Shown: positions 1 to 25,000 of the stretch, piece after piece
Layout of the letters: every line of letters begins with the position of its first letter
Numbering within the stretch: position 1 is the first letter of the stretch
IMG/VR virus record: IMGVR_UViG_3300020156_000059
Location: 1-38,534 of that record
Direction: 5' to 3' (one strand)
Length of the DNA stretch: 38,534 nucleotides
Source of the DNA: a virus
Lineage: Duplodnaviria; Caudoviricetes
The notes under the pieces: generated by a model
Seen by the model: the letters and a program-made list of their open reading frames with translations, nothing else
What the model was told of the DNA's origin: nothing
Database searches by the model: none
Translations under genes and position numbers: made by a program

Positions 1-534
1 AACGCTGAGAAGCCCACGCCCGGAGAGAAGGCGGCCCCAGGCCGCCCGACGCTCTACACCGAGCCCGTTGTGCGCGAGATCCTTGAGCGCCTGATGGATG
101 GCCAGAGCATGCGCCGCATCTGCGCGGATGATCACATGCCGTCGCGGTCCACGGTGCTCGATTGGCTGGAGGAGCATGAGGATTTCCGGGCCAAGTGCGC
201 GCGTGCGCGAGAGGTCCAGGCCCACGACTACGCCGCTGAGACCATCGAGATTGCCGACGATGACCGCCACGATTGGGCGCCGGTGCACAATGCCGACGGC
301 GAGCTGGTCGGCGTGAAGGTCGATGGCGACCACATCAAGCGCTCGGCCCTCCGGGTGTCGAGCCGACAGTGGTATGCCGCCAAGCTCGCGCCCAAGAAGT
401 ATGGCGACAGCGTCCAGCTCAAGCACGCGGACGCCGACGGCAACAACCCGCCGGCCCACGATGACACCGCGGCAGCCGCACGTCTTGCGGCCATCCTGGC
501 TGACGTTCAGCGCCGCGTCGGTGGGGAAGGCTGA
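1..534 (+). CDS. terS: Terminase small subunit (5'-truncated; frame open from base 1)
   Basis: Frame 1 reads NAEKPTPGEKAAPGRPTLYTEPVVREILERLMDGQSMRRIC..MPSRSTVLDWL and later RQWYAAKLAPKKYGD, typical of Sf6 gp1-like TerS; lies upstream of terL. Confidence 0.88.
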   Translation, partial: NAEKPTPGEKAAPGRPTLYTEPVVREILERLMDGQSMRRICADDHMPSRSTVLDWLEEHEDFRAKCARAREVQAHDYAAETIEIADDDRHDWAPVHNADGELVGVKVDGDHIKRSALRVSSRQWYAAKLAPKKYGDSVQLKHADADGNNPPAHDDTAAAARLAAILADVQRRVGGEG

Positions 535-833
535 TGTGGCCCGCCTACCGCACACCGCATGAGACTGAGCTGCTCGGCGCGGCCCTGGCCCGCGGCGAGC
601 TGGCGAGGACTGGCGGCGTGCCCGCTTGCGGCGCGCTCCACGCGGTAGCCTCCAGGCTGCGGGCATTCGAGACCCTGTGCCCGAACCTGCCGCTGTCCCG
701 CATCATCACGATCGCTGAAGCCGACAGGCGGTCTGACATCCGCGTCGTCCTCGATGACCTGGGCGCGCCTCTGCTGATCCTTGCCGCCGCGACGGCCGCC
801 TTGGGCTTGCTCGCCCACCAACTAGCCAACTGA
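534..833 (+). CDS. Hypothetical protein with C-terminal hydrophobic anchor (99 aa)
   Basis: TGATG coupling to terS; C-terminal PLLILAAATAALGLLA segment. Confidence 0.6.
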   Translation: MWPAYRTPHETELLGAALARGELARTGGVPACGALHAVASRLRAFETLCPNLPLSRIITIAEADRRSDIRVVLDDLGAPLLILAAATAALGLLAHQLAN

Positions 834-848
834 CTGAAGGAGGCCGCT

Positions 849-1325
849 ATGGAACTACACCCCGACATCGCCGCGCAGCTGCACAAGATGCCAGAGCCGG
901 AGCGGACCCGCGTTTGCGACTTCATCCGCATCCTCAAGGCCAGCGATCCTGCGTCCGCCTCCAACTCGAGGCCGGGAGCGCTGACGATCGCCCCAAGATG
1001 CCGCACCGTCATTCTGCGCCCGGAGCCGTGCACCGCCCTGCATTACGTCGCCACCTACGTCAACGATCTGGGCGAAGAGCACTACCTGGCGCTCGGCCGA
1101 AGCGAGGAGAATGATCTGAGCATCGCAGGAGCCGCGAACACGGTCGTTGCGATGGATCATCCGATCGCCCGCTCCTACCGGTTCTACAGGGAGGAACCCG
1201 ACTCGGGGCGCTTCGGCTTCATCGGGGAGAGCGAGCAGCCGGTGTTCGTGGATCGCAACTACATCCCCGACCTCTCCCGCGAGCCGCCGCTCAGCGGGCT
1301 CCTCTCGAAGAGGGCGGCGGCGTGA
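849..1325 (+). CDS. Stand-alone paralogue of a tail-nozzle domain (158 aa)
   Basis: AAGGAGG RBS; C-terminal half aligns with the 14024..15826 product (YVxTxVN, ENDL, YR, FGFIG, DRNYIPDLS..PP). Confidence 0.8.
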   Translation: MELHPDIAAQLHKMPEPERTRVCDFIRILKASDPASASNSRPGALTIAPRCRTVILRPEPCTALHYVATYVNDLGEEHYLALGRSEENDLSIAGAANTVVAMDHPIARSYRFYREEPDSGRFGFIGESEQPVFVDRNYIPDLSREPPLSGLLSKRAAA

Positions 1326-1630
1326 GCGAGCCCAAGGTTTACCTGGTGGCGGGGGGGAGCTTCGGCCCCTTCTACATCGCCACGGCGGTCGTGGGCGGGG
1401 TCGAACAGTATCTCGCCCGCGGGCACGCACCATCAGCCTACACGGGCGCGGACAAGGCCATCGTCGCGCCTGAGCGCGCCGATGCCACGGCCTACCGCTT
1501 CTATCGGCTGCAAGGCGGCCGTCTGGGGCTGATCGGCGAGAGCGAGACGCCCGCCTTCATCGACAACGTCCCCGCGGCGGACACGGACACACCGCCGCCG
1601 CTTGAGCTGTTGGAGGCGATAGACGCATGA
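1322..1630 (+). CDS. Second stand-alone paralogue of the same nozzle domain (102 aa)
   Basis: GTGA overlap; FYIATAV..YRFYR..LGLIGESE..FIDN..TPPP matches both the 849 ORF and the nozzle domain. Confidence 0.75.
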   Translation: MSEPKVYLVAGGSFGPFYIATAVVGGVEQYLARGHAPSAYTGADKAIVAPERADATAYRFYRLQGGRLGLIGESETPAFIDNVPAADTDTPPPLELLEAIDA

Positions 1631-1797
1631 GCGGTCGCGCCTTCATGCGGTGGCTGGTGAGCCCCCTGATCGCTAGCGCAATGGTTCGGCTGGGCGTTGA
1701 CGTGACTACAGCAGTTCTCATCGGGATGGCCTGCTGGTGTGCGCTGGAAGGGCTTGCTCCGACTGTCCAGGCCACCGAGCGCAAGGCTAACGCCTGA
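1627..1797 (+). CDS. Small hydrophobic protein (56 aa, MSGRAFMRWLVSPLIASAMVRLGVDVTTAVLIGMACWCALEG...)
   Basis: ATGA overlap with the upstream ORF and TGATG overlap with terL; fills the gap exactly. Confidence 0.6.
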   Translation: MSGRAFMRWLVSPLIASAMVRLGVDVTTAVLIGMACWCALEGLAPTVQATERKANA

Positions 1798-3374
1798 TGC
1801 TTACCCAGGACGTTGCCCGGCTCTTGCCGCACATGACGCCGGAGGAGCGCGCTGAAGTGAACGCCCTGCTCGCGGTCGACAAGGCTGCGCGGGTATGGCG
1901 TCCGCTGCCTGGGCCCCAGACCGACGCCTACGCGTCCGAGGCGGACATCATCGGCTATGGCGGCGCGGCCGGCGGCGGCAAGACGGACCTGATGTGCGGT
2001 TCCGCGCTCACGAAGCACAAACGGGCGATCATCTTCCGGCGGGAGGCTCCGCAGCTGCTCGGCATCACTGACCGGCTCGGCGAGCTTCTCGGGTCGAAGG
2101 ATGGCTTCAACAGTCAGGAGAAGGTTTGGCGTCTGCCCGATCGGCAACTCGAGTTCGGATCTGTGCCGCACGCGGGCGACGAGAAGCGCTATCAGGGCAG
2201 GCCGCACGACTTCATCGGCTTCGACGAGGCGACGAACCTGTTGGAGTCGCAGGTGCGCTTCCTCCTGGGCTGGCTGCGGACCACGGAGCCCGGCCAGCGG
2301 TGTCAGGCCCTGCTCACCTTCAACCCGCCTACGGACGCTGAAGGCCGATGGGTCATCAGCTTCTTCGCGCCGTGGCTCGACGACAAGCACCCGAACCCCG
2401 CCAGGCCGGGTGAGCTGCGTTGGTTCGCCACCGTGAAGGGGAAGGACTTGGAAGTGCCTGACGGCTCGCCCTTCGTGCTGATCGGCGGCAGGCGCGTCAC
2501 GATGTTCGATCCTGACGAGCACCTCCCGGAAGAGATCATCACGCCGTTGAGCAGGACGTTCATCCCGTCGCGCGTCAACGACAACCCCTTCCTCACGTCC
2601 ACCGGCTACATGGCCCAGCTCCAGAGCCTGCCGGAGCCCCTGCGCTCACAGATGCTGAAGGGCGACTTCATGGCCGGGGCGGAGGATGACCCGTGGCAGG
2701 TGATCCCGACCCTCTGGATAGACCAGGCGATGGCCCGCTGGCAGGAGAAGGACGCCAAGGGTCCAATGGACAGCCTGGGCGTGGACGTCGCGGCCGGCGG
2801 CGCGGACAAGTTCACGATGTGCCCGCGACACGGCACATGGTTCGACCGGGTCATCGCTATCGAGGGCAAGGAGATCACGGAGCCCGCCGTGGGCTTTGGC
2901 CGGATCATGACCGTCCTGCGCGATCGGGCGCCCATTCACATCGACGTCGTCGGCTGGGGAGCCGGCCCCTACGCCCTGCTCCGGGATAATCAGCTGCAGG
3001 TGATCGCGGTCAACGGCGCGAGCAAGGCCGTGACCGGCAAGTCGCTCGAAGGCGAGCTGCCGTTCTTCAACCGCCGTGCGGAGACGTGGTGGCGACTGCG
3101 CGAGGCGCTTGGCCCCATGAACCCGCATCCGATGGCGCTACCCCCTGATCCGGAGTTGCGGGCGGATCTGGCCGCGCCTCGCTGGAAGATGGCGCCCGGC
3201 GGTGGCGGCATCCAGGTCGAGAGCAAGGACGACATCAGGAAGCGCATCGGCCGCTCACCGGACAAGGGCGACGCCGTCGTCCTGGCCAACATGAGCACGC
3301 CCAAGCGCGCTCTCCGGAGCCCAACGCAGATGGCCGTCGGAGCCGCCTACGACCCCTTCAAGGACATCATGTAG
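1797..3374 (+). CDS. terL: Terminase large subunit
   Basis: Walker A GYGGAAGGGKT, Walker B FIGFDEA, TFNP coupling motif, nuclease motifs LGVDVA and SPDKGDA. Confidence 0.96.
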   Translation: MLTQDVARLLPHMTPEERAEVNALLAVDKAARVWRPLPGPQTDAYASEADIIGYGGAAGGGKTDLMCGSALTKHKRAIIFRREAPQLLGITDRLGELLGSKDGFNSQEKVWRLPDRQLEFGSVPHAGDEKRYQGRPHDFIGFDEATNLLESQVRFLLGWLRTTEPGQRCQALLTFNPPTDAEGRWVISFFAPWLDDKHPNPARPGELRWFATVKGKDLEVPDGSPFVLIGGRRVTMFDPDEHLPEEIITPLSRTFIPSRVNDNPFLTSTGYMAQLQSLPEPLRSQMLKGDFMAGAEDDPWQVIPTLWIDQAMARWQEKDAKGPMDSLGVDVAAGGADKFTMCPRHGTWFDRVIAIEGKEITEPAVGFGRIMTVLRDRAPIHIDVVGWGAGPYALLRDNQLQVIAVNGASKAVTGKSLEGELPFFNRRAETWWRLREALGPMNPHPMALPPDPELRADLAAPRWKMAPGGGGIQVESKDDIRKRIGRSPDKGDAVVLANMSTPKRALRSPTQMAVGAAYDPFKDIM

Positions 3375-3377
3375 CCG

Positions 3378-3779
3378 ATGCTAGACAAGCTCTTCAGGTC
3401 ATCTCCGCCGCCCGATTTGCTCGGTGCATATGCGAGCCGCACGGCCATGACGAACAGCTTCGCGGAACAGCAGCGGCAAGCGATTGAGCCAGAGCACGCC
3501 CGCCGTGTAGCGGAGTGGGAGGCGAACGACGCCGAGTTCCGCCCGGTCTGGGACGATAGCCAGCTGCGCTGGCGCATCCAGCGTCGCGGCTCGCGCCCCG
3601 ATCTGATCCGCTTCGGACCCGGATGGATGCCGACAGGCGGTCCCGCACTCTTGGACCGCGCGGGCTTTGACACGCGGGAGCAGGCCCAGGCATGGATAGA
3701 TCGGCAACTCGAGGAGCGTGAACGGGCGCGCGCCTCGGGCGACGTCCTGCCCGTGTTCGTGATGACCTGGAGGATGTGA
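3378..3779 (+). CDS. Hypothetical protein (133 aa)
   Basis: Starts 4 nt after terL; normal composition; no recognisable motif. Confidence 0.6.
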   Translation: MLDKLFRSSPPPDLLGAYASRTAMTNSFAEQQRQAIEPEHARRVAEWEANDAEFRPVWDDSQLRWRIQRRGSRPDLIRFGPGWMPTGGPALLDRAGFDTREQAQAWIDRQLEERERARASGDVLPVFVMTWRM

Positions 3780-3887
3780 TGACCGCGCGAGAGATTGATA
3801 CTGGCTGGGTGAGCAGATGCCCGGATCGAATAAACGCTATCGTTTATCGGGAGACCTTCAACGGCATCGTTCGGCCCTGATCGTTCA

Positions 3888-3916
3888 TTGACGCGTCGCG
3901 CGAAGGGGCTGACACT
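3888..3916 (+). promoter_or_regulatory. Putative sigma70-type promoter
   Basis: TTGACG (3888-3893), 17-nt spacer, GACACT (3911-3916). Confidence 0.45.
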
Positions 3917-3922
3917 AGCCTA

Positions 3923-4020
3923 TCTACCGGGCTTGCCAGCCCGGCGGCTTGGCAGAGCCGAAAGTTCACGGGTCTCCTTTCCCTTTCCGGGTTCAGGTTT
4001 AGCGACCTGAACCCGGTTCC
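3923..4020 (+). ncRNA. Candidate structured small RNA
   Basis: Hairpins at 3927-3944 and 3945-3960 with complementary loops, CU-rich tract, and a perfect 12-bp stem at 3987-4016, downstream of a putative promoter. Confidence 0.4.
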
Positions 4021-4038
4021 GTGTGAGGCTTCCATCGC

Positions 4039-4058
4039 GAGCGAAGTATCGGATCATC
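4039..4058 (+). promoter_or_regulatory. Conserved 20-bp late-gene element, copy 1 (GAGCGAAGTATCGGATCATC)
   Basis: Identical copies at 12667-12686 and 28072-28091, all intergenic and in the same orientation before gene blocks. Confidence 0.8.
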
Positions 4059-4093
4059 CTTCGGCAACGCAGCCGAACCGGACCTCGCCGCCC

Positions 4094-4288
4094 ATGTGCA
4101 TCAGCACTCCCAAGGTTCCCCCACCGCTCCCGCCTCGCCAAGCCCCGAAGATGGCTGACCCCAACTCGGTGCGCGAGAACGCGGAGGCGATGCAGCGTCG
4201 GCGCTTCGGCATGGCCGCCACGGTGCTCACCGGGCCCGGCGGGCTGGCTCCCGCCGCCACGACCGGCAAGAGCCTCCTGGGGCAGTAA
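4094..4288 (+). CDS. Small pre-portal protein (64 aa)
   Basis: MC..PKVPPP...ATVLTGPGG...KSLLGQ pattern is typical of the small gene before the portal in this phage group; TAATG coupling. Confidence 0.75.
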   Translation: MCISTPKVPPPLPPRQAPKMADPNSVRENAEAMQRRRFGMAATVLTGPGGLAPAATTGKSLLGQ

Positions 4289-9526: not shown

Positions 9527-9931
9527 GTGGTAGCCCGCGCTCTATCGGCCAACAGCCCCCTTGCGGGCTTCGACATCGAAACTCGCGACCCTGACGGGAA
9601 CGCTCGCCAGAACCCCGCCCTGGCTACCATCCAGACCGGCACGAACGGCACGCCCGTCAACGCCAACCAGCCTGCGGGCTTCCAGCGCATCACGGACCTG
9701 TCGGCGGCGGTGGGCCTCACCGTCCCGGAGGGCGCGCGCCGCGCCATGATCCAGCCGGAGAACGGCGGCTTCCGCTGGCGCGATGACGGTGCGGCCGATC
9801 CGACCGAGGACGTCGGCCTGCTCGTCGAGTTGGGCATGGGCCTCGACTACGACGCGGACCTGACCGCCATCCGCCTGATCGAAACCCCGGCCGGCGTCGG
9901 CACGGTGGTCAGCGTGGCCTACTATGCCTAA
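9527..9931 (+). CDS. Small beta-rich virion protein, possible spike base (134 aa)
   Basis: GAGGAGG RBS; GFQRIT.LSAA.GLTVP..FRWRDDG..PT pattern; overlaps the start of the spike gene. Confidence 0.7.
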   Translation: MVARALSANSPLAGFDIETRDPDGNARQNPALATIQTGTNGTPVNANQPAGFQRITDLSAAVGLTVPEGARRAMIQPENGGFRWRDDGAADPTEDVGLLVELGMGLDYDADLTAIRLIETPAGVGTVVSVAYYA

Positions 9932-12638
9932 GCTGTTCCAAGCGAGCCTGAAGCAAGGCGTTTATCCGATCGAGCTGTTCGGTGGCGGTCCCAACCGGAC
10001 CCGCGAACAGAACGAGGCGGCCTTGGAGCGCGCCCGCCGTGAGGGCAAGCCGATCCGCTATGACGGGCTCTCGAAGGGCCTGACCCTGGCCGATGCGGCA
10101 AGCTGGCCGCGTCCTGATAAGACTGACCTCCGGCTCTTCGTCGACGTCGATCCGAACGCCACGGCGGAAGAGCGGTGGGCCGCCTTCCGTGGGGCTTGGG
10201 ACTTCATCGGCGAGTGCCGGGCGGACAACCGCATCAAGGTCGTGCCGCGGCTTCCGGAGGGCGCGTCCAAGCTCATCACCATCCAGCCGCCGCTCATGCG
10301 TAACCCCTCGGTGGTCGGTGATCGCGAGCCCTACATCCGCTACGGCGGCAAGGATGCGCTCTTCATCTCGGGCGGCGACTCTCCGACCTTCCTCCAGGCC
10401 GTGCAGGTGCGGTGCGCCAAGGCCAACCCGGCGGCGACCTCAAGCGACCCGGATTTCGGGCTGTGGAACATCGAGTGCGACCTCGATCCGGCGGGGGACC
10501 CGCTCGATGCTGGCGTCGTCGTCGGCTGCAGCGTCGGCCTGCAGAATTTCCAGGGCGATGGCGTCGACAACATCGACGCCGAAGCATTCAACGGCATCGT
10601 CCGCATCGAGAGCATCTCGCCCGGCCGCCGCACCTTCGGCTTCAAGATCTGGATGAAGCGTCTCGATCCGACGGCTGTGTCGTCGGATGATGAAACGCCT
10701 CTCTATCAACTCCCGGCCGTCATCAACCTCATCGCTGACGAAGCGGCCGGCGAGAACGATGACGACCGCAACGCCAACAAGGTCGTGGTCTATCCGTTCA
10801 GCATCGTCCATCTGGGCGGTATGAACGGCCTCACGACGGAGTGCGCGTTCGGCGCCTGGTATGGTGGCCGCGTCATCCTCGAAAACATCGGCCTCGAGCT
10901 TTACAACCCTGGCCAGGAGCTGGGCTGCCTCCTCGGCATCAAGAAGGGCGGCGAGATCGAGCTTCGAGACTATGCGGGCGTCCTTGGCTCATCCGGCGAG
11001 CGGGCCATCCGCGGCGACGACAGGTCCAAGCTCCGCTCGAACCGCGCCAACATCTCGCCTGGGGTCTATGGCGCCGTCGAGGCGGTCGTCATGCAGTATG
11101 GCGCCCACTGGCAGTCGACGCGGGACTGCGTCGGCCTGGCCAAGAAGATCCTCTGCTATGCCGGGCCCGGCTGTGAGTGGACGCTCGATCAGGGCTTCTT
11201 CTCGGTGGGCACGGAAGGCGTGCGCGTGGATGGCGCGGAAGTCTCCACCCTGAACAGCCGCTTCTCCCACTTCACCCGCGGCGAGTTCGTTGTTCAAGGC
11301 CGGCTCACCAACGCCGGCCGCCGCGACGACGCGCGGCCTGGGACGGTCATCAGCACCTGCTACAACGCCATCGACTGGCGGTCGGGCGGCTTTGTCTGGA
11401 ATGAACCGACGTTCCGGAACAACACGGTCACGCCACTGGTGGACACCCGCGTCAACGGAGGCGGCCTCTACTCGTCGAGCACGTCCGATCTGCGCGATCC
11501 TGGCCGCACCTTCAGCGTTGGTCAGTATGGCGGCCGCATCGAGCTTCCCCTCCTGGTCGGCGCCGGCCTGCTGACCATCCAGGGGCGAACGATTCACGAG
11601 GCGAACATCGAGCTCGATGTCGACCCGTTCTCTCCGCTGGACTATCCGGTCAGGCCCCGCGTCGCGACGATGGGGCCGCTGGCCCGCTTCGAGCACAACA
11701 CCACGCTCGCCCGGAAGACCGGAGACGCTGTCGGCTTCATCACCTACGCAAGCCATCAGCGGTCGGTGAACGTCATCGGCGCGCACATCACGCGCAAGAA
11801 CGGCGTGACGACCATTCAGGGCGGCGCGATGGTCGGCCATCCGTTTGTGAGGGGCGAGGCTGTCACGGTGGCCGGCAGCACGGTCGAGTCGAGCGCGCGC
11901 GGCGGCTTCCGCCTCATCTCCGTCACCGCGGACAGCATCAGCTATGAGCAGCCCGGCGAGGCGGACATCCCTGCGCCGGTGGGCACCAATTTCACGGTCA
12001 GCTCCTGGCGGCTTCAGGTGCAGTCGGATCGCGAGTTCACCCACGCCTTCCGGGCGGTCCCCCGCGGCGACCTCGATGTCGGCGCTCCTGTTCAGGTGAC
12101 GGCTGCGGGCTCGCACGCCAGCGAGCCCGTGCCCAGCCGGTCGCCCAGGCAGTCGGGCCGTTACCTCGATGGTGAGATCCTTGTCACCAAGGACTTCGCT
12201 GCAGATGGCGCGGCAGCGAGCTACGCCGTGACCGACCTGGGGCAGTTCCGCGAGCTGATCGTCGAGTTCGAGGGCATCACCCATGATGACGCCGTCACGA
12301 GCCGGCTCATCAAGATCGAGCTGGGCGCCGGGGGCGTTTATCGGACGTCCGGCTATGTCATGGCTGGTTCAGCGCTCACGGACGCGTTCAACCTGAGCGG
12401 CACGCACGCCAGCACGAACAAGCTCTGGGGCACGGCGTTCATCACCGATTTCAACCAGGCCGACAAGAAGACCCGTATGCGGGCTTCAGCGGGCTTGGAG
12501 GCGTCGTCCACGACCTACTTCCGGCAGGGCCGTTACGACACGGCTGCGGAGGCGCACGACTGCATCAGGTTCACGCCCTCGGCTGGCAACATCGCCGCCT
12601 CGGGCCGCATCCTGATCCGGGGCAAGCGCCACTTCTAA
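9924..12638 (+). CDS. Spike/fibre, putative receptor- or polysaccharide-binding protein (904 aa)
   Basis: Central beta-helix-like repeats, FCCH-like segment (GHPFVRGEAVTVAG), C-terminal beta-sandwich ending GRILIRG. Confidence 0.7.
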   Translation: MPKLFQASLKQGVYPIELFGGGPNRTREQNEAALERARREGKPIRYDGLSKGLTLADAASWPRPDKTDLRLFVDVDPNATAEERWAAFRGAWDFIGECRADNRIKVVPRLPEGASKLITIQPPLMRNPSVVGDREPYIRYGGKDALFISGGDSPTFLQAVQVRCAKANPAATSSDPDFGLWNIECDLDPAGDPLDAGVVVGCSVGLQNFQGDGVDNIDAEAFNGIVRIESISPGRRTFGFKIWMKRLDPTAVSSDDETPLYQLPAVINLIADEAAGENDDDRNANKVVVYPFSIVHLGGMNGLTTECAFGAWYGGRVILENIGLELYNPGQELGCLLGIKKGGEIELRDYAGVLGSSGERAIRGDDRSKLRSNRANISPGVYGAVEAVVMQYGAHWQSTRDCVGLAKKILCYAGPGCEWTLDQGFFSVGTEGVRVDGAEVSTLNSRFSHFTRGEFVVQGRLTNAGRRDDARPGTVISTCYNAIDWRSGGFVWNEPTFRNNTVTPLVDTRVNGGGLYSSSTSDLRDPGRTFSVGQYGGRIELPLLVGAGLLTIQGRTIHEANIELDVDPFSPLDYPVRPRVATMGPLARFEHNTTLARKTGDAVGFITYASHQRSVNVIGAHITRKNGVTTIQGGAMVGHPFVRGEAVTVAGSTVESSARGGFRLISVTADSISYEQPGEADIPAPVGTNFTVSSWRLQVQSDREFTHAFRAVPRGDLDVGAPVQVTAAGSHASEPVPSRSPRQSGRYLDGEILVTKDFAADGAAASYAVTDLGQFRELIVEFEGITHDDAVTSRLIKIELGAGGVYRTSGYVMAGSALTDAFNLSGTHASTNKLWGTAFITDFNQADKKTRMRASAGLEASSTTYFRQGRYDTAAEAHDCIRFTPSAGNIAASGRILIRGKRHF

Positions 12639-12714: not shown

Positions 12715-13365
12715 TTGCCTTACACCACGCTCCAAATCTGCAACATGGCGCTCGACGAGATCCGGGCGGGCACGATCTCGTCCCTCGTTGAGAATAGCGA
12801 GCAAGCGGACGCGTGCAGTCGCCACCATGCGGCGGTCTTGGGCGAGCTGCTCGAGCGCCATCAGTGGGGCTTTGCTCGCAAGCGCGCCGAGCTGGTCCCG
12901 GCATCCTCGAACGATCGGCAGGAGACCTGGGCGGGAGCCTTCACCCTCCCTGCCGACCTGGCGCTCCCTATCAAGGTGCTCCGCGGCCCTGAGAGCCCCG
13001 CTGGGAGCTATGTGCCGCTTGCCGGTCAGACGCTCGTGGGCAACTCGGCGGTAGGAGCGTGGGACGGTGGTTGGGCCTACGACTACGCCGGGAGCACACT
13101 CTACACGTCTGCGCCGGGCGCTGTGCTGGAGTATGTCGAGAACGACGCCTCCGCGAACGTCTTCTCCGCACTATTCACGCGCGCCTTCGTGCTGACCCTG
13201 GCCGCTCGGATTGTCATGCCCATCAAGGATGACGTGCGGCTGAAGCAGTTTCTGATGCAGCAAGCGGAGATGGAGACGCAGCGCTCCATCGCCGCGGACG
13301 CCAACCGCCGGCCGCAGACCTACGGCGACTTCATCCCGGATGTCGTGAGGGCGCGCGGGCTGTGA
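12715..13365 (+). CDS. Tail adaptor (tail tubular protein A-like)
   Basis: LQICNMAL..I, LLERHQWGFARKR..L, F..AFVLTLAARI motifs; TTG start. Confidence 0.85.
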   Translation: MPYTTLQICNMALDEIRAGTISSLVENSEQADACSRHHAAVLGELLERHQWGFARKRAELVPASSNDRQETWAGAFTLPADLALPIKVLRGPESPAGSYVPLAGQTLVGNSAVGAWDGGWAYDYAGSTLYTSAPGAVLEYVENDASANVFSALFTRAFVLTLAARIVMPIKDDVRLKQFLMQQAEMETQRSIAADANRRPQTYGDFIPDVVRARGL

Positions 13366-14024
13366 GGATCGACGCACCCACGTTCGCAGGCGGTGAGATC
13401 GGCGAAGCTCTCGTCGCCCGCATGGACACGGCCAAGTATGGCACGGCGCTCCGTCGGGCTCGCAACGTGCTGAGCATGGTCACGGGCGGCGTGTATGCGC
13501 GGCCCGGCTTCCGCTTCGTCGGCAGGGCGAGAGACAGCAGCAAGCGCGTTCGTGCGCTGCCGTTCCAGTTCTCGATAAGCCAGTCCTACGTCCTGGAGTT
13601 TGGCCACCAAAGCCTCCGCTTCATCGTGGATGGCGGCTATGTCACCGAGCGCCAGCAGACCATCGCGGGCATCACGAAGGCGGCGCAGGCCGTCGTTGAG
13701 GTTCCCTGCCACGCCTACGCAGTCGGAGATGACATCTACTTCTCTGGCGTGACAGGGATGACCCAGATTAACGGGCGCATCGGCCGTGTGCTCGAAGTGG
13801 TCGACGCCGATCGCGTCAAGGTCGACATCAACACCACGACATTCAGCACCTTCACCGGTGACGTCGGTGGTGTGAACGCCTGCGATGTCGCGCCACCGCC
13901 TCCACCGGACCCGGAAGACCCGCCGCCGCCGCCGCCCTACGAGGACAACGACCCCGACACGGGCGAGGTCATCACCGGCGGCCCGCTGATCCCAGGCGGC
14001 AACGACGATGGGCAGGTGAACTGA
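13362..14024 (+). CDS. Tail nozzle (tubular protein B-like), N-terminal part, with FCCH-like domain and Pro-rich tail
   Basis: FAGGEI..L.ARMD..KY, GG..ARPG.RFV, PFQFS..QSYVLEFG, ITKA..AVV..HAY..GD.IY; ends in a poly-Pro/acidic extension. Confidence 0.85.
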   Translation: MRIDAPTFAGGEIGEALVARMDTAKYGTALRRARNVLSMVTGGVYARPGFRFVGRARDSSKRVRALPFQFSISQSYVLEFGHQSLRFIVDGGYVTERQQTIAGITKAAQAVVEVPCHAYAVGDDIYFSGVTGMTQINGRIGRVLEVVDADRVKVDINTTTFSTFTGDVGGVNACDVAPPPPPDPEDPPPPPPYEDNDPDTGEVITGGPLIPGGNDDGQVN

Positions 14025-15826
14025 TGCCTGCCGCCCGCATCTACACCCTGCCGACGCCCTACACAGAGGATCAGCTGTTCGACCTCGGGTTCGAGCAGAG
14101 CGCCGACGTCATGTATCTGACGCATGTGGATCACCCGCCCCGCAAGCTCTCGCGGTATGATCACGCGTCCTGGATACTGTCCGTCATCGACTTCGGGGCT
14201 ACGACCGCCATTCCGCAAGGCGTCTCGATCAGCCGCGAGGCGACGAACACCGGCGAGAACTACCGCGGCCGGCCGTTCACCTATGTCGTCACCGCCGTTA
14301 ACGGCGACACGGGGCAGGAGTCGCTGCAGTCGGCCTCGGTCACGATCGAGAACGACCTGGAGCTCAGCGCCGGGAACATCAACATCGTCGAGTGGGACGC
14401 GGTCACGGGCGCCTCCCGCTACAACATCTATCGGAGCGAGAACGGCGTCTTCGGCTTCATCGGAGCCGCGACCGACACGACGTTCACGGATCGCAACTAC
14501 ATCCCCGACCTGAGCCTCTCGCCTCCCGAAAACCGAGAGCCGTTCAACGGGGCGTATGACAAGCCGGCCCGCGTCTCTTTCTTTCAGCAGCGCACCGTCT
14601 GGGCGCGGACGAAGAACAAGCCGAACGGGATGTATTTCTCGCAGTCGGGCGATTTCGAGAACCTGAACGTCTCACAGCCGCTGCGCGCGACCGACGCCGT
14701 CACGATGAACCTCGTGGCGAGGCAGGTGAACGCCATTCAGCATCTCGTTCCGCTGAGCAAGCTCATCGTGCTCACGTCGGACAACATCTTCGCCATCTCC
14801 GGCGAACCGTTCACCGCGACAAACGTCGAGATCGAGCCGAGCGGGATGCGCGGCTCGTCGCGTGTGCGCCCGGCCATCGTCGACAACATGGCCTTCTTCA
14901 ACACGGCGCTCGGGGGTGCGATCCGGACGCTGAACTACTCCTTCCAGGATGACGGCTACACGGGCAACGACATCACCGTCTTCGCCCCGCACCTGTTCCG
15001 CGGCCTCACCGTCAACGCCCTTTCGTGGGCGGATTATCCGACGCAGACGCTCTGGGTGGTCCGCTCGGACGGCAAGGTGCCGGCGCTCACCTGGCAACGT
15101 GAGCAGGACGTCTGGGGCTGGAGCCTGTGCCAGACCGACGGGGTTGTAGAGGACGCCTGCACCGTCACCGAGAACGGCGAGAGCGTGACCTACTTCGTCG
15201 TCCGCCGCACGGTTCAGGCGCAGCAGGTTCGCTTCATTGAGCGGATCGCCTCGCCCACCTGGGCGAGCGTGGCTGACGCGGTGCATCTGGACTGCTCGCG
15301 TAGCTACTCGGGCACGCCGGCCACTGTCATCCGCGGCATGGAGCACCTTGAGGGCCGCACTGTAAACGCGCTCGCCGACGGCATCCCCCGGCTCGGTCTC
15401 GTGGTGAGCGGTGGGAAGATCACCCTGCCCCAAGCGGCCTCCAAGGTTCACGTCGGCCTGCCCTATGAGGCGTGGATCCGGACCTTGCCGCCGCCGATCC
15501 AAGGGCGGGACGGGTCACAGAAGGGGAAGTCCCAGCAGGTGACGAAGGCGGTGCTCTCCGTGATCGACACATGGGGGCTCGAGGTCGGCCCCGGCCGCAA
15601 CCCCGCGCCCGGCGCCCAGGAGACGAGCGACGGGGAGTGCCACGGCTTCCGGCCGCCGAAGCTGGACACGAACATCGGCAACGGAGCGGTGACGGGCCCC
15701 GTCACCGGCGACCTCCATGTAACGCTTGGTGGGACCGACTGGCGCTCTGCGTCTGTCGTCGTGCGGCAGAAGATGCCCCTGCCGATGATCCTGACCGGGA
15801 TCTCCTACGATCTGACGGCGCCATGA
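14024..15826 (+). CDS. Tail nozzle (tubular protein B-like), C-terminal part
   Basis: TPYTEDQL..QSADVMYLTH, P..VSFFQQR, LDC, HLEGRTV..LADG, VHVGLPY, PLPMILTGI motifs. Confidence 0.9.
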   Translation: MPAARIYTLPTPYTEDQLFDLGFEQSADVMYLTHVDHPPRKLSRYDHASWILSVIDFGATTAIPQGVSISREATNTGENYRGRPFTYVVTAVNGDTGQESLQSASVTIENDLELSAGNINIVEWDAVTGASRYNIYRSENGVFGFIGAATDTTFTDRNYIPDLSLSPPENREPFNGAYDKPARVSFFQQRTVWARTKNKPNGMYFSQSGDFENLNVSQPLRATDAVTMNLVARQVNAIQHLVPLSKLIVLTSDNIFAISGEPFTATNVEIEPSGMRGSSRVRPAIVDNMAFFNTALGGAIRTLNYSFQDDGYTGNDITVFAPHLFRGLTVNALSWADYPTQTLWVVRSDGKVPALTWQREQDVWGWSLCQTDGVVEDACTVTENGESVTYFVVRRTVQAQQVRFIERIASPTWASVADAVHLDCSRSYSGTPATVIRGMEHLEGRTVNALADGIPRLGLVVSGGKITLPQAASKVHVGLPYEAWIRTLPPPIQGRDGSQKGKSQQVTKAVLSVIDTWGLEVGPGRNPAPGAQETSDGECHGFRPPKLDTNIGNGAVTGPVTGDLHVTLGGTDWRSASVVVRQKMPLPMILTGISYDLTAP

Positions 15827-16865: not shown

Positions 16866-19046
16866 ATGCGCGTTCCTGAATACGGTGGCCAGCAGGTTCA
16901 GCTTCGGCCCATCGCTGACGTGAAGCAGGCGGACGTGGCCACGCCCGAAGCGTTCGGCCTTGGCATCGCGCGCTCTGGCCAGCGGCTGGCGCAAGGCTTC
17001 CAGGATGCCGCGGCAGCTGCAGCCAAGCGTCAAGACGAGCTCGACGAGGCCGCCACGCGGCAGGCTGAGATCGAAGCGGCGAACGCCTCTCGCGAAGTCC
17101 TGAAGGGCGAGAAGGGGCTTCTCCGTCTTCAGGGGCTGGACGCGGTCACAGCGGCCGAGGCGACACGGAAGCAGCTGGAGGACATCTACAAGAAGGCGCT
17201 CGACGGCGACATGACGCCTCAGCGCCGGCAGATGATCTCACAGGTTCTGCAGGCTCGTCGGCAACGAGAGTTCGAGCTGATCGACGCGCACGTCGTTCAG
17301 GAGGAAGACCGCTACAAGGACACGATGTCCAACGAGCGGATGACCCTGCTCACCCGCGAAGCGCAGGAGGCGGTGGACGACGACGAGCGCGAAGTGAAGA
17401 TGCTGGCGCTTCGGGGCGAGCTGGAGGACTTCGCTGACCGGAAGGGCCTGGGCGTCGAGTTCGTCACCGCTCGTTTCCAGACGGCCGAAGCGAACGTCTA
17501 TAAGGGCATCATCCAGAACATCCTTGCGGACGACACCCGCGCCGGCGACGCAGAGGCGGCGCTCGATCGCTGGGGCGGGAAGCTGCAGCCGGGCGACCGC
17601 GCAGTGCTCGGCGCCCAGGTGAAGGACGCCAAGCTAAAGCTGGACACCGCGACCTTCGCGATGAGCCTCACGTCTGGAGTGTTCGAGGATCCGGATATGC
17701 CGGAGCCGACGGGGCGGGGCGAAAGCGACACAACAACGCCGGCCTTCAGGCCGCCTGTCGAGGCCAGCCGCATTTCCTCCAGGTTTGGGTTGCGAGACCA
17801 TCCCATCGACGGCACCCGGAAAATGCACTGGGGGACCGACTACGTTGCTGAGAGGGGAGCGCCAGTCGTGGCGTCCGCGGACGGCGAAGTCATCTTCGCA
17901 GGTAGGGCGGGCGGCTATGGCAATCAGGTCCGCGTGCGCCACGCCAACGGCTGGGAAACGACCTACAGCCATCTCGACGCGATCAACGTGAAGGTGGGAG
18001 ACCGTGTCACCGGCGACCGCCCCCTCGGCGCTGTTGGCTCGACCGGCAAGTCGACGGGCCCTCACCTGCACTACGAAGTCTTCTTCAACGGCAAGCGCCT
18101 CGATCCGGAGAAGGCCCGTGTGCCTGGCGCTCCAGCGACCGATGACGCCGTGCGCACCGCCCGCGCTCCGGGTGAGCTGACGTTCGAGTCCGTCGACCGG
18201 GCGGCCCGCGTGGCGGCCGCTGGCGATCCCATCCGCTATCAGGCGTTCTTGTCCCAAGGGCTGGCCGTGCTTGGCCGCCAAGAGGCGGTGAAGACTGAGC
18301 GCGAGCGCAAAGCCTGGGACGACGTGCAGCCGTTCCTTCTCGAAGGCTCGACCGCGCGCTCCATTAACGAAATCCCCGCGTCTATCCGTCGGGGCCTCTC
18401 GCCCACGCAGCTCACCCAGCTCGACCGCTTCTTCGTCAGCCGGGCGAAGGAAGACGCTGCTGGCAAGGCTCGCGTCACCGATCCGGCGAAATTGCTCTAC
18501 CTATCGGACCTCTTCGCCTCGTCTCCGGCGGCGTTCGCGAAGCTTGATCCGTCCACCTACGTCAACAGCCTCACGCCGGGGGACTTTGAGCAGGTGCTGG
18601 GCTGGCGCCGCGAAGCGATCAGCGGTGCCGGAACATCAAAGGAGCGCTCCGACTCCCAGCTGAGCATCGAGGCGGCGAACCGGGCGGCGAGCAGGGTGCT
18701 CCCGAAGGACGTAAAAGGCGACGCCAAGGCGCTGTTCTTCCGCCAGCTGATGGCTACCGGAGCGGAACACCGCCGCCTCAGTGGCAAACCTCCGTCGGAC
18801 GAAGACTGGCTGCGCTTCGCCGATACCCTGCTCCTCGATGTGAAAATTCGCGACGCTGGCTTCCTCGGTGGCGACAAGCCCGCCCGCCGCTTCGAGGTGC
18901 CGACCGGCGCGCGCTTCAACTACGACGTGCCTGACAAGGCGGAGAAGGAGCTGCGCGACAGCTTCCGCCGGCGTGAGGGCCGCGACCCCAATCCTCGCGA
19001 ACTTGGTGAACTCTGGAGGCGGGCACGCGCCCGCGGGATCTACTGA
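16866..19046 (+). CDS. Ejection protein with embedded M23 peptidase (726 aa)
   Basis: ISSRFG.R.HP, HWGTD, GGYGN.V, YSHL, STGPHLHYEV; helical flanks; gp15-like position. Confidence 0.87.
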   Translation: MRVPEYGGQQVQLRPIADVKQADVATPEAFGLGIARSGQRLAQGFQDAAAAAAKRQDELDEAATRQAEIEAANASREVLKGEKGLLRLQGLDAVTAAEATRKQLEDIYKKALDGDMTPQRRQMISQVLQARRQREFELIDAHVVQEEDRYKDTMSNERMTLLTREAQEAVDDDEREVKMLALRGELEDFADRKGLGVEFVTARFQTAEANVYKGIIQNILADDTRAGDAEAALDRWGGKLQPGDRAVLGAQVKDAKLKLDTATFAMSLTSGVFEDPDMPEPTGRGESDTTTPAFRPPVEASRISSRFGLRDHPIDGTRKMHWGTDYVAERGAPVVASADGEVIFAGRAGGYGNQVRVRHANGWETTYSHLDAINVKVGDRVTGDRPLGAVGSTGKSTGPHLHYEVFFNGKRLDPEKARVPGAPATDDAVRTARAPGELTFESVDRAARVAAAGDPIRYQAFLSQGLAVLGRQEAVKTERERKAWDDVQPFLLEGSTARSINEIPASIRRGLSPTQLTQLDRFFVSRAKEDAAGKARVTDPAKLLYLSDLFASSPAAFAKLDPSTYVNSLTPGDFEQVLGWRREAISGAGTSKERSDSQLSIEAANRAASRVLPKDVKGDAKALFFRQLMATGAEHRRLSGKPPSDEDWLRFADTLLLDVKIRDAGFLGGDKPARRFEVPTGARFNYDVPDKAEKELRDSFRRREGRDPNPRELGELWRRARARGIY

Positions 19047-22000
19047 TGCCGCAATTTGACCCTCTGGACGAACTCGACCGCATCGAGACGCAAGAAGCCG
19101 CCCTGAACCTCGGTAATGCCCGGAGTCTGACCGATCCGGAGAAAGCGGCGTTCGCAATCCGGGCTGGCCATCAGCTCGGCTTGCCGATGGAAACGGTGCT
19201 GCGCGAGACGCCGGCCGTTCAGCGCATCCTTGCGCAAGAGGAGGCGGCCGCGGCGCTTTCCAGCGCTCCGCGCACCCGCTCATGGCTGGGCGATCCGGAC
19301 AACGCCGCGGTGGCGCAAGATCAGGTTACGCCGCTCACGCAGCTTGAGCGCGGTATCCGCGACATCTTCAAGGCTCCTGCGGATCGCGCGTTCATCTCCG
19401 GCGCCGTGGGTTCGGTGGGTCAGGGCGTCGGCGGTATTGGCGAGCTGGGGCAGGCGCTCGACCGGACGCAGCGCCGGGCGCGTGGGCTGAACCCCATCCG
19501 CCCCGGTAGCGACTTCGGCATCCGCTCTATCGGCCCGTGGCAGGGCAATCAGCCGGAGGCGGAGCACGACTTTTTCGGCATCAGGATCAAGAAGGGCGAT
19601 CAGGTATTCGATGCGCTCTGGAACGCGGTGGCCAATCTGCCGACTCTGTTCCGGGCCGCGGACGAAGCGGGCGAGGCGGTCGAAGCCTCGGCCCAACGCA
19701 TCGGGCCCTCTCCTGAAGAGCGCAACCTCTGGACCGACATCAACAGCGCCTTGGGTCAGGTGCTCGTGCAGGTCGCCATGACAAAGGGCATGGGGGCTCC
19801 AACCGCCGGAGCCATGATGGCCGGGCAGGGTGCGGAAGATATGGCTGACCGCGCCGAAGCGGTCGGGATGGGCAACACGGCGGAAGCCGACGCGGCGATG
19901 GTGGTGAACGCCACGTCAAACGCCATCCTGGAGCGGCTCGGCATCGGCCGCCTCCTTGATCGCGTCCCTCCGGCTGGCCGCCGTCAACTGCTCCGGGCCG
20001 TGCAGGATGTCGCCATTGCCGCGACCGTGGAGGGCACGACGGAGGCAACCCAGGCCGTCGCCTCCAATCTGATTGAGCGCGCCCTGCTCAATCCTGATGC
20101 TCCGATCCTGCAGGGCGTGGTGGATGAGGGCCTCGCCGGTGGTGGTGCTGGCGGCATCCTTCGCGCGGTGATCCTGGCTGCGGTTCCGGGGCGCACCTTC
20201 GCGGCGCGGTCTGCGATGGCTGGCGAGGCCCAGGCCAAGGCCGATGCGCTCCGCGACGTCGCTGAGCAGGTGTCGAGCTCCCCCTTGGTCAAGCGCGCGC
20301 CGGAGCGGCTCGAACAGCTGATGAACACGATTGCTGATGGGGGCGAGGTGTTCGTCCCGGCATCGGCGGTGCGCACGTTCCTCCAGGATCTTCCGGAGGA
20401 CCGGCAACAGGAGCTTATCGAGTTCTGGGGCATCGAAGATCAGCTTGAGCCTGCCCTGACCGCGGACGCTGACGTAGTCATGCCAGCGGGCACATACCTG
20501 GCGCGGGTAGCCACGAGCGAAGCGCATGAAGCCTTCGCCGATCATGTGCGGTTCGGCATCGACGATATGAGCGTCGCCGAAGCACGCGCGTTCGAGGAGG
20601 AGAAGAGCGCGCTGATCGCGGAAGAGGGCGAGCGGCTGCTTCGGCAGGCCCAGGACGAGGAGGCGGCGGAGGGCCCCTCCACTCGGGTTTATCGCGACCT
20701 GTTCCGCCAAGCCCGCGAAGCGGGGTTCACCATCGACGTCGCCAAGCGCTATGCCGCTGTCCTGGCGGCGCGCTACGAGACCCGCGGCGCCCGGTTGGGT
20801 GTGGATGCATGGGACGCCTATCAGCGCACCGGCCTCGTCATCAAACAGGCCGTTCCTGAGCAGCTGCGTCGCCGCGTCGACCGGCTCGACGTGATCGTCG
20901 ATGCGCTCCGCGCCGGTCGCCGGCCGGATCAGAAGCGCGGCCCGTCGCTTCTCGAGTTCATTGCGCGGCAAGGGGGCATCAACGACGAGGGCGGTGAGCT
21001 GGCCGCGCGGGACGCTGACAAGTGGCACAAGGGCAAGCCCGGCCGTCGCAAGATCGTTCGGCAGGACGGCCGAACGATGGGCGATATGGCGGTGGCCGCG
21101 TGGGAGGCCGGCTACTTCCCCGAGGCCGTTGAAAACCCGTCGGGCCCTGAGCTGCTTGAAGCGATCGAGGGCGAGCTGCGCGGATCGGCGCGGTTCGCCG
21201 TGCCGACGGATGAGCGCCGGGCGGAAGTGGCGCAAGCCGTGGATCAGCTCGACGAGCTGCTCGCCACGCTGGGCATCGACCCTGACCGCGCCTCTAACGA
21301 GGAGATCAAGCAGGCGATCCAGGCATACAGCGATCAGCCGGAGGGCCGGTCGTTTGAGCAGTTCGCCGGCCGTCGCTCGTTCACCGCCGATCGGGCGAAG
21401 CTGGCGCGCGCGGAGGAGATGGAAGCGGCCGGGGAGCTACCCGGCATCATCGAAGACTTCACCGGCTGGCGCCGGGGCGACGACGGCCAATGGCGCTATG
21501 AGATCACGGACGAAGATGCCGCGCTGCGGGAAGACGGCTGGGCGGAGCTGGAGAGGCGAGCCGGCGATGACGGGCCCAAGGGGACGGTCCATCTCGGCGA
21601 AGTCATCTCGCATGACCGCCTGTTCGCCGCCTATCCCAAGCTCCGGGCCTACCCGATCCGGGTGATGGCCTTTAAGTCGCGCGGGACGCACGCCGCTTGG
21701 GGTGATGGTGAGATCGCCCTGGCCAAGCGCCTCGTCGAGAGCGGCGACCGCGAGAAGGCGCTGTCTTCGCTCCTCCACGAGATCCAGCACGTCATTCAGT
21801 CGGACGAGGGCTTTGCGCTCGGCGCTCCGTCGAGCGTCTCAGCAATGCGCGAGTCGACCTATGCGGACGCGCTGCAGGAGGAAATCGCCCGCCTGGAAGA
21901 CCTGGGCTTCGACGGCGAGCGCGAGATGGTCGAGATGACCGCGGCGCGGAACGTCTATCATCGCTCCGCTGGGGAGATCGAGGCGCGCAACACGCAGGCT

Positions 22001-25000
22001 CGTCGCAAGATGACGGAAGCCCAGCGCGGCGACCTTCCCGGCGACTACACCCGCGACGTGCCGCGGGCGGAGGCGGTGGTGCGCCTCCGGCTGCAGCGCG
22101 ACCGCGTCGGCGAGCTGCTCACCATCCCCGCGGAGCACACGGCGCTCGGCCCGGATGAGCCCTCTCCGGAGCAGATTGAGGCCGTGCTAGAGGCGGCAGA
22201 CCAGCCGGGGCACAGCTACGCCAAGGCCACCCTTGGGCCCGTTCCCGGCTGGCTAGTCGAGGCAGCGCGTGAAGCCGGTGTCGAGCTGGAGGGCTATCAC
22301 GCCTCTATCGACACCCCGGCTGTCCGCCACATCAAGGCGGGCCACGGCAATGCGAAGAGCGAGGAGAAGCGTGGTCAGGAGGCCGTGACGCCTGCAGACT
22401 TCCACGCCATCCCTGACATCGTCGCCGCGCCTGACCGGGTCGTCCTCGGCGCGAAAACGAAGCGCAATCAAGACATCGTCGTCTTCGGGAAGGACATCGG
22501 CAACGGCACGACAGTCTTCTTGGCGGAGGTCCGCACGGGCCGTCGGGAGCTTGCGTCGCTGTCGATGTGGAAGAGTCGCACCCCGACTAATGCCATTCGC
22601 CTTGCAGCGACCATCCGCCGATACGTCAGAGACGCGGGTGCGACCGACCTGAAGATAGTGGAAGCGCCGCCCCATGCCAAGGCGCAAGCCTTCGAGCGGT
22701 GGTTCGCGGGTAGCAAGGTCGTCGATGCGCGTGGTCGGCCGCTCGTGATGTATCACGGCACGAGCCGCGACTTTGACGCTTTCAGCATCGCGGAAGGTGA
22801 CGGCGCATACTTCACGTCGGCCGCCGATTACGCAGAGGAATACGCGAACGTCCGAGCGGCGGCGGCTGTGCCGCAGTCGATGGACGAGACCCAGCCCGTC
22901 GGCGCCCGGCTCATGCCGGTGCACCTGGCCCTGAAGAACCCGCTCGAAGTCGATCCTGCCGACCGCGAGGCGCTTGAGCGCTACACTGACCGGGGCTTCG
23001 ACCGTCGCGAGCTGATCGCGAAGGGCTATGACGGCATCGTCGTCCGCTACCCTGATGGCGAGGTCGAGGCGCAAGCCTTCTTCCCCGAACAGGTGAAGTC
23101 GACGTTCAACCGTGGAACCTACGACGGGAGCGATCCGCGCATCCTCTACCAAGCGGCGGCCAACGGTTCGCCCGGCCTGCTTGATGAGTTCTCGGGCGAG
23201 GCTACGGTCATGCGCCCTGACGTGCGCCTCGATGACCGCTCTGCCGCGGACGTGAGCGCGGCCACCGATGCTGAGCAACAGGCGCTCGCTGTCTCGCTGG
23301 CCCCCAACCTGGGCGAGCTGGCGCATCTCGCGGCGGACATCGGCGGCATTGACCCTGATGAGGCGGTGCGCGTCGGCGAGGCGAACGCTGGCCCTGCCCT
23401 GGCCTCTGCCCTGCGCGCGATCAGTGAGCGGGTCGGCAACGGTCAATCGCTCAACGAAGCCGTCGAGGGCTACGCTGCGGCGGCGCGCGCGCTCTCGGAG
23501 CGCAAGCAAGATCCGATCACTCTGCGGCTGGAGCACCTGACGCGAGCGGCGCTCGCTGAAGCGGTGGGTCCGCGCCTCCGCCAAGTCGACGCCCCTGCCC
23601 TGCGTTTCGATCAGTCGAGCCTTCGGCCGGCTGGCGAGTTCTCGCAACGCCTGTCCGCCGCGGTGACGGCCAAGTATCCGGATGTCCAACTGACCCTCAC
23701 GGACAACGGCCGGATCGCCACCCTTTCCCGCATCGAGGTTCCTGACGCTGCTCGAGGCGAAGGCATGGGCTCGGACATCATGGCGATGCTCACCCAGGCA
23801 GCGGACGACGCGGGCGTCGCGCTGGCGCTCACGCCTTCGGGCGCGTTCGGCGGCAACGTCCGTCGGCTGCGGGCCTTCTACAAGAGGTTCGGGTTCGTCG
23901 AGAACAAGGGGCGCAATCGCGCCTTCACCATCAGCGAAGCGATGTATCGCCCGGCGCCGGGAACGGTCTATCAACAGAGTGCGCGAGGCGATGTCACCTT
24001 CACGGCGGGGCGGGCCGTCATCCAGCTCTTCCAAGGCCGCGATCTGTCCACGCTTCTGCACGAGGCAAGCCACGTCTGGCTCGAAGAGTTGGCGTTCGAC
24101 GCGGCCGATCCGGCGGCCAGCATCCAGGTGCGCCGTGACTTCCAGGCCGTGCTCAACTGGTTCGGGGTCAGCTCCTGGTCGGAAGTCACGACAGAGCATC
24201 ACGAGCGCTGGGCGCGGGCCGGGGAAGCCTACTTCATGGAAGGGCGCGCTCCCCGCGCCGATCTGCAAGAGCACTTCCAGCGCTTCAAGGCGTGGCTGGT
24301 CCGCATCTATCGCACCGTCCTGAACCTCAACGTCGAGCTGAATGACGACGTGCGGGGCATCTTTGACCGGCTCCTCGCTTCGGAGACGGAGATTGCGGCC
24401 GCGAAGGAAGCCCAGGCCCTGCGCCCCTTCTTCGCCAGCGCGCAAGACGCCGGAATGACGGATGCCGAATACGCTGCTTATCAGCGGGCGGTGGAAGACG
24501 CTGACCGCCGCGCGACCGAGCGGCTCGCCGCGAAGGCAATGAACGATGTGCGGCGCCGACGCACGAAGGAATGGCGCGTCGAGTGGGAGGCGCTGCGCGA
24601 GGAGGTCGCGTCGGAGTTGGAGTCGACGCCGGAGCATCGCGCCTGGGCGATGCTGGAGACGCGCGCGATCTCGGTCTCGCGCAAGGATGTCGTCGACCTG
24701 TTCGGAACGGAGGCGGTGGTCGAGCGCCTCCCCCGTGGCGTGCCGCCCTATTTCGTGAACAGCGGCGGCGCTCACCCCGATTACTTGGCTGACGCTGCGG
24801 GCTTCCCCAGCGCGACCGCGGCCATTGAGGCGGTGATGTCGATGGAGCAGGAGCGTCGCGAGATGCGGGCCAGCGGCGACAACCGGAACATCCGGGCCGC
24901 CCGCATCGACGCTGAAACCGACCGGCGCATGGTCGATCGACACGGCGAGATGCTGAGCGATGGCTCGATCGAGGAGGAGGCGCTTGCCGAGGTCAACGAC

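Follow-up and report, generated by a model that had tools for sequence, protein, structure and literature searches.

Two stand-alone genes for a nozzle-type Ig-like domain between terS and terL of a soil podophage genome

The gap between the genes for the small and the large terminase subunit (terS and terL) of a viral contig from a soil metagenome contains two short genes, ORF849 and ORF1322, each encoding a free-standing domain related to the Ig-like insertion of the nozzle of the same phage. Both genes appear, from the pattern of their codons and substitutions, to be intact and under purifying selection. The contig is linear, 38,534 bp long and 87% complete, and the window, that is the whole stretch of DNA that was analysed, is the entire record. 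Its late genes are in the same order as in Bordetella phage BPP-1 (terS, terL, portal, Bbp19-like, scaffold/protease, major capsid, Bbp16, adaptor, nozzle, internal virion proteins). Since integrase and repressor genes are also present (Pfam/PHROG matches), we considered the phage as a temperate podophage. The features on which the analysis relies are the following.

1..534, + strand: terS, terminase small subunit (PF20901, E 2e-38; phrog_1482), whose 5′ end probably coincides with or precedes the first base of the window (earliest GTG at 70)
534..833, + strand: ORF534, a 99-aa orphan with a C-terminal hydrophobic segment and a 1-bp overlap with the terS stop
849..1325, + strand: ORF849, 158 aa, with an N-terminal helix pair, a linker and then a free nozzle-type permuted Ig domain (RBS AAGGAGG; CAI 0.66)
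1032..1292, + strand: Ig-like copy 1 (ORF849 residues 62-148), without the first strand, the conserved Trp and the E-S motif
1322..1630, + strand: ORF1322, 102 aa, Ig-like copy 2, sister paralogue of ORF849, with an acidic C-terminal helix
1627..1797, + strand: ORF1627, a moderately hydrophobic 56-aa orphan (CAI 0.54, GC3 0.72)
1797..3374, + strand: terL, terminase large subunit, BPP-1-like (phrog_979, phrog_2)
13362..14024, + strand: N-terminal piece of the split nozzle gene (first ~100 aa of phrog_376; E1_FCCH-like domain; poly-Pro acidic tail)
14024..15826, + strand: main nozzle subunit, BPP-1 Bbp13/Carin-1 nozzle family (phrog_376, E 7e-138; 8CK1, E 3e-73)
14213..14536, + strand: Ig-like insertion of the nozzle, related to both free copies by pairwise and profile matches

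The region 534-1797 is tiled by four plus-strand ORFs, and the junctions across the gap read, from 5′ to 3′, TGATG, AAGGAGG ribosome-binding site plus ATG, GTGA, ATGA and TGATG. These stop/start overlaps and the one strong RBS bear out an earlier sequence-only reading, according to which the block is tightly coupled into the packaging operon. The same reading had described the two outer ORFs as hydrophobic. This holds for ORF534, whose best 19-residue Kyte-Doolittle mean is 2.14 and whose hydrophobic segment is a possible membrane anchor (CAI 0.63, against 0.45-0.48 off-frame), whereas ORF1627 is borderline at 1.80 and has the weakest coding signal of the four gap ORFs. The proteins of ORF849 and ORF1322 are small and acidic (-4 and -6, respectively). 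A separately assembled Logan contig from the likely source run covers positions 4-3800 with zero differences, which argues against misassembly, although it probably derives from the same sample and is not independent biology. Rfam gave no match and the repeat search nothing informative. The frame of ORF1322 is open for 69 codons further upstream, beneath the end of ORF849 (window 1115-1630), and a -1 frameshift could fuse the two domains; no classic slippery heptamer was seen by eye.

Elsewhere in the window we noted an orphan 133-aa ORF after terL (3378-3779), followed, before the portal gene, by about 500 bp without a clear gene and with several short inverted repeats (3780-4287); a 904-aa ORF without any Pfam or PHROG match, which we read as tail spike- or fibre-like (9924-12638); an internal virion protein with an M23 peptidase domain (16866-19046); and a 2888-aa multi-domain protein without a convincing NCBIfam match (19046-27712). 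TerL is 54% identical to the BPP-1 Bbp25 region. Several relatives have their nozzle gene divided at the position seen here, among them L003 (4075-4731/4731-6509) and L044 (611-1288/1288-3072), and the proteins P0067, P0119 and P0162 start at that point as well; a poly-proline, acidic tail closes the N-terminal piece of the window and that of L044. The A1002 nozzle is also split, differently from that of the window lineage as far as the available text describes it (PMC13730344).

Both ORFs had been proposed to align with a segment of the nozzle, and this observation is real and beyond chance. For ORF849 the relation is direct, its residues 66-147 aligning with residues 87-168 of the nozzle (14024-15826) at 37/84 identical positions (44%, E 1e-15), with a z of 25 over 1000 shuffles. 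ORF1322 matches the nozzle weakly (13/39 identical, E 3e-4, z 5.8) and ORF849 well, sharing 35 of 83 positions with the latter (42%, E 2e-14). A profile search of the phage's own genome returned exactly three copies of the domain. We also built a profile from 101 other nozzle domains, leaving out ORF849, ORF1322 and the own nozzle. It recovered ORF849 with E 2e-21 and ORF1322 with E 1e-11, the latter in its C-terminal half only; most members of this profile were collected via the ORF849 and ORF1322 profile, hence it is not fully independent of them.

The domain is a regular insertion of Bbp13-type nozzles, with sequence matches to the Bbp13 and Jess A nozzles, and it coincides with a break (query 57-179) in the alignment to the Carin-1 nozzle. 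It consists of two FN3-like half-motifs in swapped order, that is, it is permuted. In Bbp13-type nozzles the insertion lies within the chain of the beta-propeller nozzle, whereas here two ORFs of their own (158 and 102 aa), 13 kb away from the nozzle gene, encode it without the first strand, the Trp and the E-S motif. In the nozzles of L001, L002 and L035 an E1_FCCH-like domain sits inside the Ig domain and splits it in two.

The AF2 model of ORF1322 is a beta-sandwich (pTM 0.76, 7 sequences), the top BFVD match of which is a stabilization protein, i.e. a phage nozzle (E 5e-5); ESM Atlas comparisons gave TM 0.86-0.88 to nozzle-type clusters. The model of ORF849 (pTM 0.55) comprises two N-terminal helices, a low-confidence or disordered linker (35-61) and the Ig domain. 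Foldseek found no PDB match at E ≤ 0.001 for either model, and the best VIA Z values for ORF1322 and ORF849 were 4.7 and 5.2, respectively. The permuted beta-sandwich predicted in both models agrees with the earlier description of the two proteins as Ig/FN3-like domains. We rejected the idea that the N-terminal helices of ORF849 mimic the TerL N-terminus, as they gave no score against a 13-sequence TerL profile.

Codon adaptation of ORF849 and ORF1322 is 0.66-0.67, compared with 0.31-0.43 off-frame. Synonymous sites are at chance both between ORF849 and the nozzle (23/38 identical codons, 21.0 expected) and between ORF849 and ORF1322 (15/37, 17.9 expected); they are saturated, so both splits must be old, and the frames are nevertheless open. 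ORF849 is identical to the own nozzle at 22 of 26 family-conserved columns against 18 of 76 variable ones (p about 5e-8) and ORF1322 at 16/24 against 5/69 (p about 2e-8), where the reference set for column conservation is biased toward the query motifs. A null model of neutral decay left stop-free frames in 261 of 1000 runs and predicted more shared codons and a smaller bias between codon positions than observed (same-codon share 0.77 +/- 0.08 against 0.44 observed; GC3-GC2 0.26 +/- 0.06 against 0.34 observed).

In ORF849 and ORF1322 the first strand is gone, and so are the core Trp and the E-S motif, and the strand that follows bears a Phe. The E-S motif, conserved at 99% and 91% in nozzles, is lost, like the Trp, from all free copies. 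At a position that is usually aliphatic, this Phe is found in all free copies, in 3 of the 14 nozzles without the Trp and in none of the 88 nozzles with it (p 0.002 for the nozzles); being confined to Trp-less nozzles and free copies, it reads as core compensation for the lost Trp. ORF849 moreover agrees with the consensus at 20 of 26 positions and has the D-x-N-x-x-P-D-x-x-x-x-P-P return segment in full.

The marks of a decaying pseudogene are missing, as there are no stops or frameshifts and the changes track conservation. We weighed as a rival explanation that the two ORFs are degenerate nozzle remnants without present function, which their occurrence in a single genome, the truncated first strand, the lost motifs and the hot-spot location could suggest. 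The open frames, the RBS and coupling, the adapted codons, the retention of conserved columns, the saturated synonymous sites and the compensated core make us consider it very unlikely.

In a 30-row tree drawn from 129 domains, ORF849 and ORF1322 are sisters (support 96/86), both on long branches, which points to one release followed by tandem duplication. The earlier claim that they are copies of the phage's own nozzle is not established. It is favoured by the top whole-domain local score of ORF849, which is with the own nozzle (148, the next of 128 others scoring 146), and by the motif D-x-N-Y-x-P-D, which among the 129 domains is common to the own nozzle, ORF849, P0068 and P0169 only. On the other side, the own nozzle ranks 10/102 for ORF849 and 102/102 for ORF1322 in variable columns, and in the trees both copies fall with nozzles that lack the Trp and belong to other phages (P0064, P0089, P0160), a placement that may be due to long-branch attraction. 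AU tests did not reject an own-nozzle origin (p 0.142 and 0.066). A recent duplication from the own nozzle was rejected because of the saturated synonymous sites; its sole hint is a stretch of 24 bases identical between ORF849 (1250-1273) and the nozzle (about 14488-14511), which is possibly a gene conversion patch, overall codon identity being at chance level.

The grouping with foreign nozzles would also suit a role in interference, in which the copies resemble the nozzles of competitor podophages and poison their tail assembly in co-infection, as Tab and Tai do with tails. The phage is temperate, and Tab occupies the same gap in the available account of its system (PMC10884400). We consider this role unlikely: a sigma-70 scan of the terS-terL gap found no promoter-like site that could serve separate, lysogenic expression, coupling to the late operon sets the genes apart from Tab and Tai, which the available texts describe as made from the prophage, and the tree placement on which the resemblance depends may be an artefact of the kind just mentioned.

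Free-standing copies are rare. With ORF849 and ORF1322 as queries, word-index protein searches recovered nothing beyond the window's own proteins; the two are near singletons and the pair was found in one genome only. A profile search among proteins of 54-205 aa gave 11 matches, namely ORF1322, 8 nozzle fragments and 2 canonical FN3 pieces; its sensitivity is limited, as it missed ORF849, itself in the query alignment. We examined the best 150 of 212 representative profile matches. Of these, 95 of the 148 non-self matches also match nozzle body or N-terminal parts, and most of the remaining ones look like tandem FN3-type proteins, judging from their multiple matched stretches.

The sole other free-standing form among the best 150 of 212 matches is represented by P0068 (177 aa), which joins a Lar-like zinc finger (PF14354 E 8e-4 and TIGR03655 E 6e-6, both under cut-off) to an N-terminal domain of the RFYR type that lacks the Trp. 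P0169 is a second member, and the two are on short Logan contigs (1.6 and 5.5 kb). To judge from their sequences, they represent an independent free-standing form.

Scans of viral sequences for free copies returned nozzles or nothing, with one match (L007, E 3e-4) assigned neither to a nozzle nor to a free form; the metagenome scan returned this contig alone and the genome scans, of limited reach, nothing. The 52 phage records have one domain place each, as counted over the set and not record by record, and 11 of 23 records searched, many of them fragments, matched, with all 13 places in frames of at least 595 aa. A Paracoccus match considered as a free copy was a nozzle. By ESM Atlas features, some unnamed clusters of short proteins (96-171 aa) also match, with scores of 0.88-0.94; they could be additional free forms and are a lead only. 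The records and scans searched, whose reach is limited, contained no second phage in which a free copy adjoins terL, and the literature searched, with partial coverage, held no description of stand-alone nozzle-domain genes or decoys.

Two further explanations were weighed. The free domain could be a co-opted fold, that is a scaffold that binds a host protein unrelated to the tail, its nozzle ancestry being only historical. The loss of the E-S motif and the Trp in all free copies, the long branches, the Lar-like fusion of P0068 and P0169 and a gap that collects unrelated accessory genes would all be expected; ORF849, however, retains the return segment and its consensus positions as if a nozzle-like surface mattered, and we regard this explanation as somewhat doubtful. 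Alternatively, the two proteins could be accessory virion or assembly proteins, which dock on tail or head as surface-binding modules or chaperone the split nozzle. The family is mainly a virion part (the 95 of 148 non-self matches among the best 150 of 212, and the BFVD stabilization protein), ORF849 has an anchor-linker-domain layout in which the helix pair could dock, the genes belong to the late operon and the nozzle is split in the window lineage. Yet the other relatives with a split nozzle that were searched (G003, G010, G017) have one domain match each, within the nozzle, the genes are remote from the tail cluster, no anchor is apparent in ORF1322 and the P0068 form bears a non-structural zinc finger; we therefore judge a virion role to be rather improbable.

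To place the gap itself, we compared 16 terS-terL junctions (14 of 18 terL loci plus Jess A and BPP-1, with terS assigned partly by eye). Ten of these junctions are tight, one measures 188 bp and five measure 460-3090 bp. Four of the five long gaps hold unrelated ORFs, and that of L021 one ORF; the unrelated genes in the gaps of relatives indicate an accessory hot spot. Structural-looking genes lie in the gap of L017 (6901-9989) and about seven small ORFs in that of L025 (2428-4592); the gap of L024 (8411-9797) holds an ORF that we take to be HNH-like by its motif.

The nearest terL relatives are only 47-55% identical, and none was found with any of the four ORFs. Homology searches and the fetched loci gave no relatives of ORF534, and no frame matching ORF1627 was present among the fetched loci. 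The proposal of a dedicated four-gene module accordingly lacks support: its flanks have no homologues found, the gaps of relatives hold unrelated genes, and co-occurrence of the four ORFs cannot be shown because no relatives of the flanking ORFs were found. In the following, the flanking hydrophobic ORFs are treated as presumably independent accessory genes.

Proteins that are selected, folded, small, acidic and coupled to the late operon must bind something. Our tentative reading is that ORF849 and ORF1322 may be late-made soluble decoys against a host or prophage factor that binds the nozzle or tail assembly. A nozzle segment would have been copied into the terS-terL accessory hot spot and then duplicated in tandem; the free copy would have lost the first strand, the Trp and the E-S motif, with the Phe compensating; and the two proteins, presumably expressed with the late operon, would tie up through their free Ig domains a protein aimed at the nozzle or at tail assembly. 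The small, acidic proteins and the selected frames fit such decoys, and the Lar-like fusion of P0068 suggests a non-virion, cytoplasmic use of the free domain. A decoy should nonetheless track the surface that it protects, yet the own nozzle ranks last for ORF1322 and tenth for ORF849 in variable columns; a mimic that binds a sensor could activate it instead of blocking it; PADLOC gave no match for either ORF; and the pair is in one genome only. A broader version, in which phages excise one exposed virion domain and make it as a small free decoy shortly before the tail is assembled, the two diverged copies would neutralise nozzle-directed sensors or blockers of tail assembly, and P0068 would be an independent case, appears to us improbable on present evidence.

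Among known folds, the closest architectural parallel is IG1 of the crAss001 muzzle gp44 (7QOK), which spans residues 163-292, has permuted strands and is placed between propeller blades 2 and 3 in the available text of PMC10172136. The ORF1322 model aligns to 7QOK 171-292 with a VIA Z of 4.3 and an rmsd of 3.8 over 89, while Foldseek gave TMq 0.54 and E 0.65; the structural score is weak taken alone. The position of the domain seems to us to resemble that of the 'nozzle-tip' domain of A1002 gp42, as far as PMC13730344 could be consulted. With canonical FN3 (PF00041) there is a weak strand match in the C-terminal half (7JGU, E 0.12; 3MPC, E 0.17), and many tandem FN3-like proteins are among the profile matches of the free copies. 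The two differ in that the half-motif order is swapped and the conserved Trp is absent in ORF849 and ORF1322, neither of which has a Pfam match to PF00041.

Among known systems, Tab/anti-Tab of Pseudomonas phage JBD26 is likewise encoded by small accessory genes in the terS-terL gap, and it shares a plus-strand gene with the same 1-bp terS overlap (here ORF534); anti-Tab, a late counter-defence on the plus strand of this gap, is a precedent for our decoy reading. Late expression, which for the window genes would follow from the operon coupling, and a conflict over tail assembly are further points of likeness (all from the available text of PMC10884400). In that account anti-Tab binds Tab, and the words 'decoy' and 'mimic' are absent from the main text as available. 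Against the parallel, the locus has no similarity to JBD26 gp30/gp31 (anti-Tab/Tab) in pairwise comparisons with shuffles (z at most 2.4), nor did tblastn of the whole window find any, and the gap contains no Tab-like minus-strand gene, its minus-strand ORFs having CAI 0.42-0.54 compared with 0.62-0.73 for five minus-strand ORFs taken as real. Tai/Ati (PMC11364771) similarly comprises phage-borne genes of tail-assembly conflict near the packaging module, with a counter-defence in the lytic cycle; its target is the central tail fibre of long-tailed phages, and we liken it by the description given in the part of the paper available.

Avs13 makes a nozzle decoy conceivable, because podophage nozzles trigger this immunity directly (PMC13581612; review PMC13728456). 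The text available from PMC13581612 describes no phage decoy of such kind, and it reports that Avs sensors contact conserved core folds and that variable extensions stay outside the contact, which weighs against a decoy made of an inserted domain. The weight of the case is limited by its occurrence in one uncultured genome. A selected free nozzle domain in the terS-terL gap is nevertheless a candidate for a cheap and direct counter-defence by structural mimicry, and, whatever the role, a virion domain has been turned into stand-alone genes at least twice. Compared with these systems, accessory late genes in the terminase gap and the virion domain itself are the known part, and stand-alone genes for a nozzle domain are the new one.
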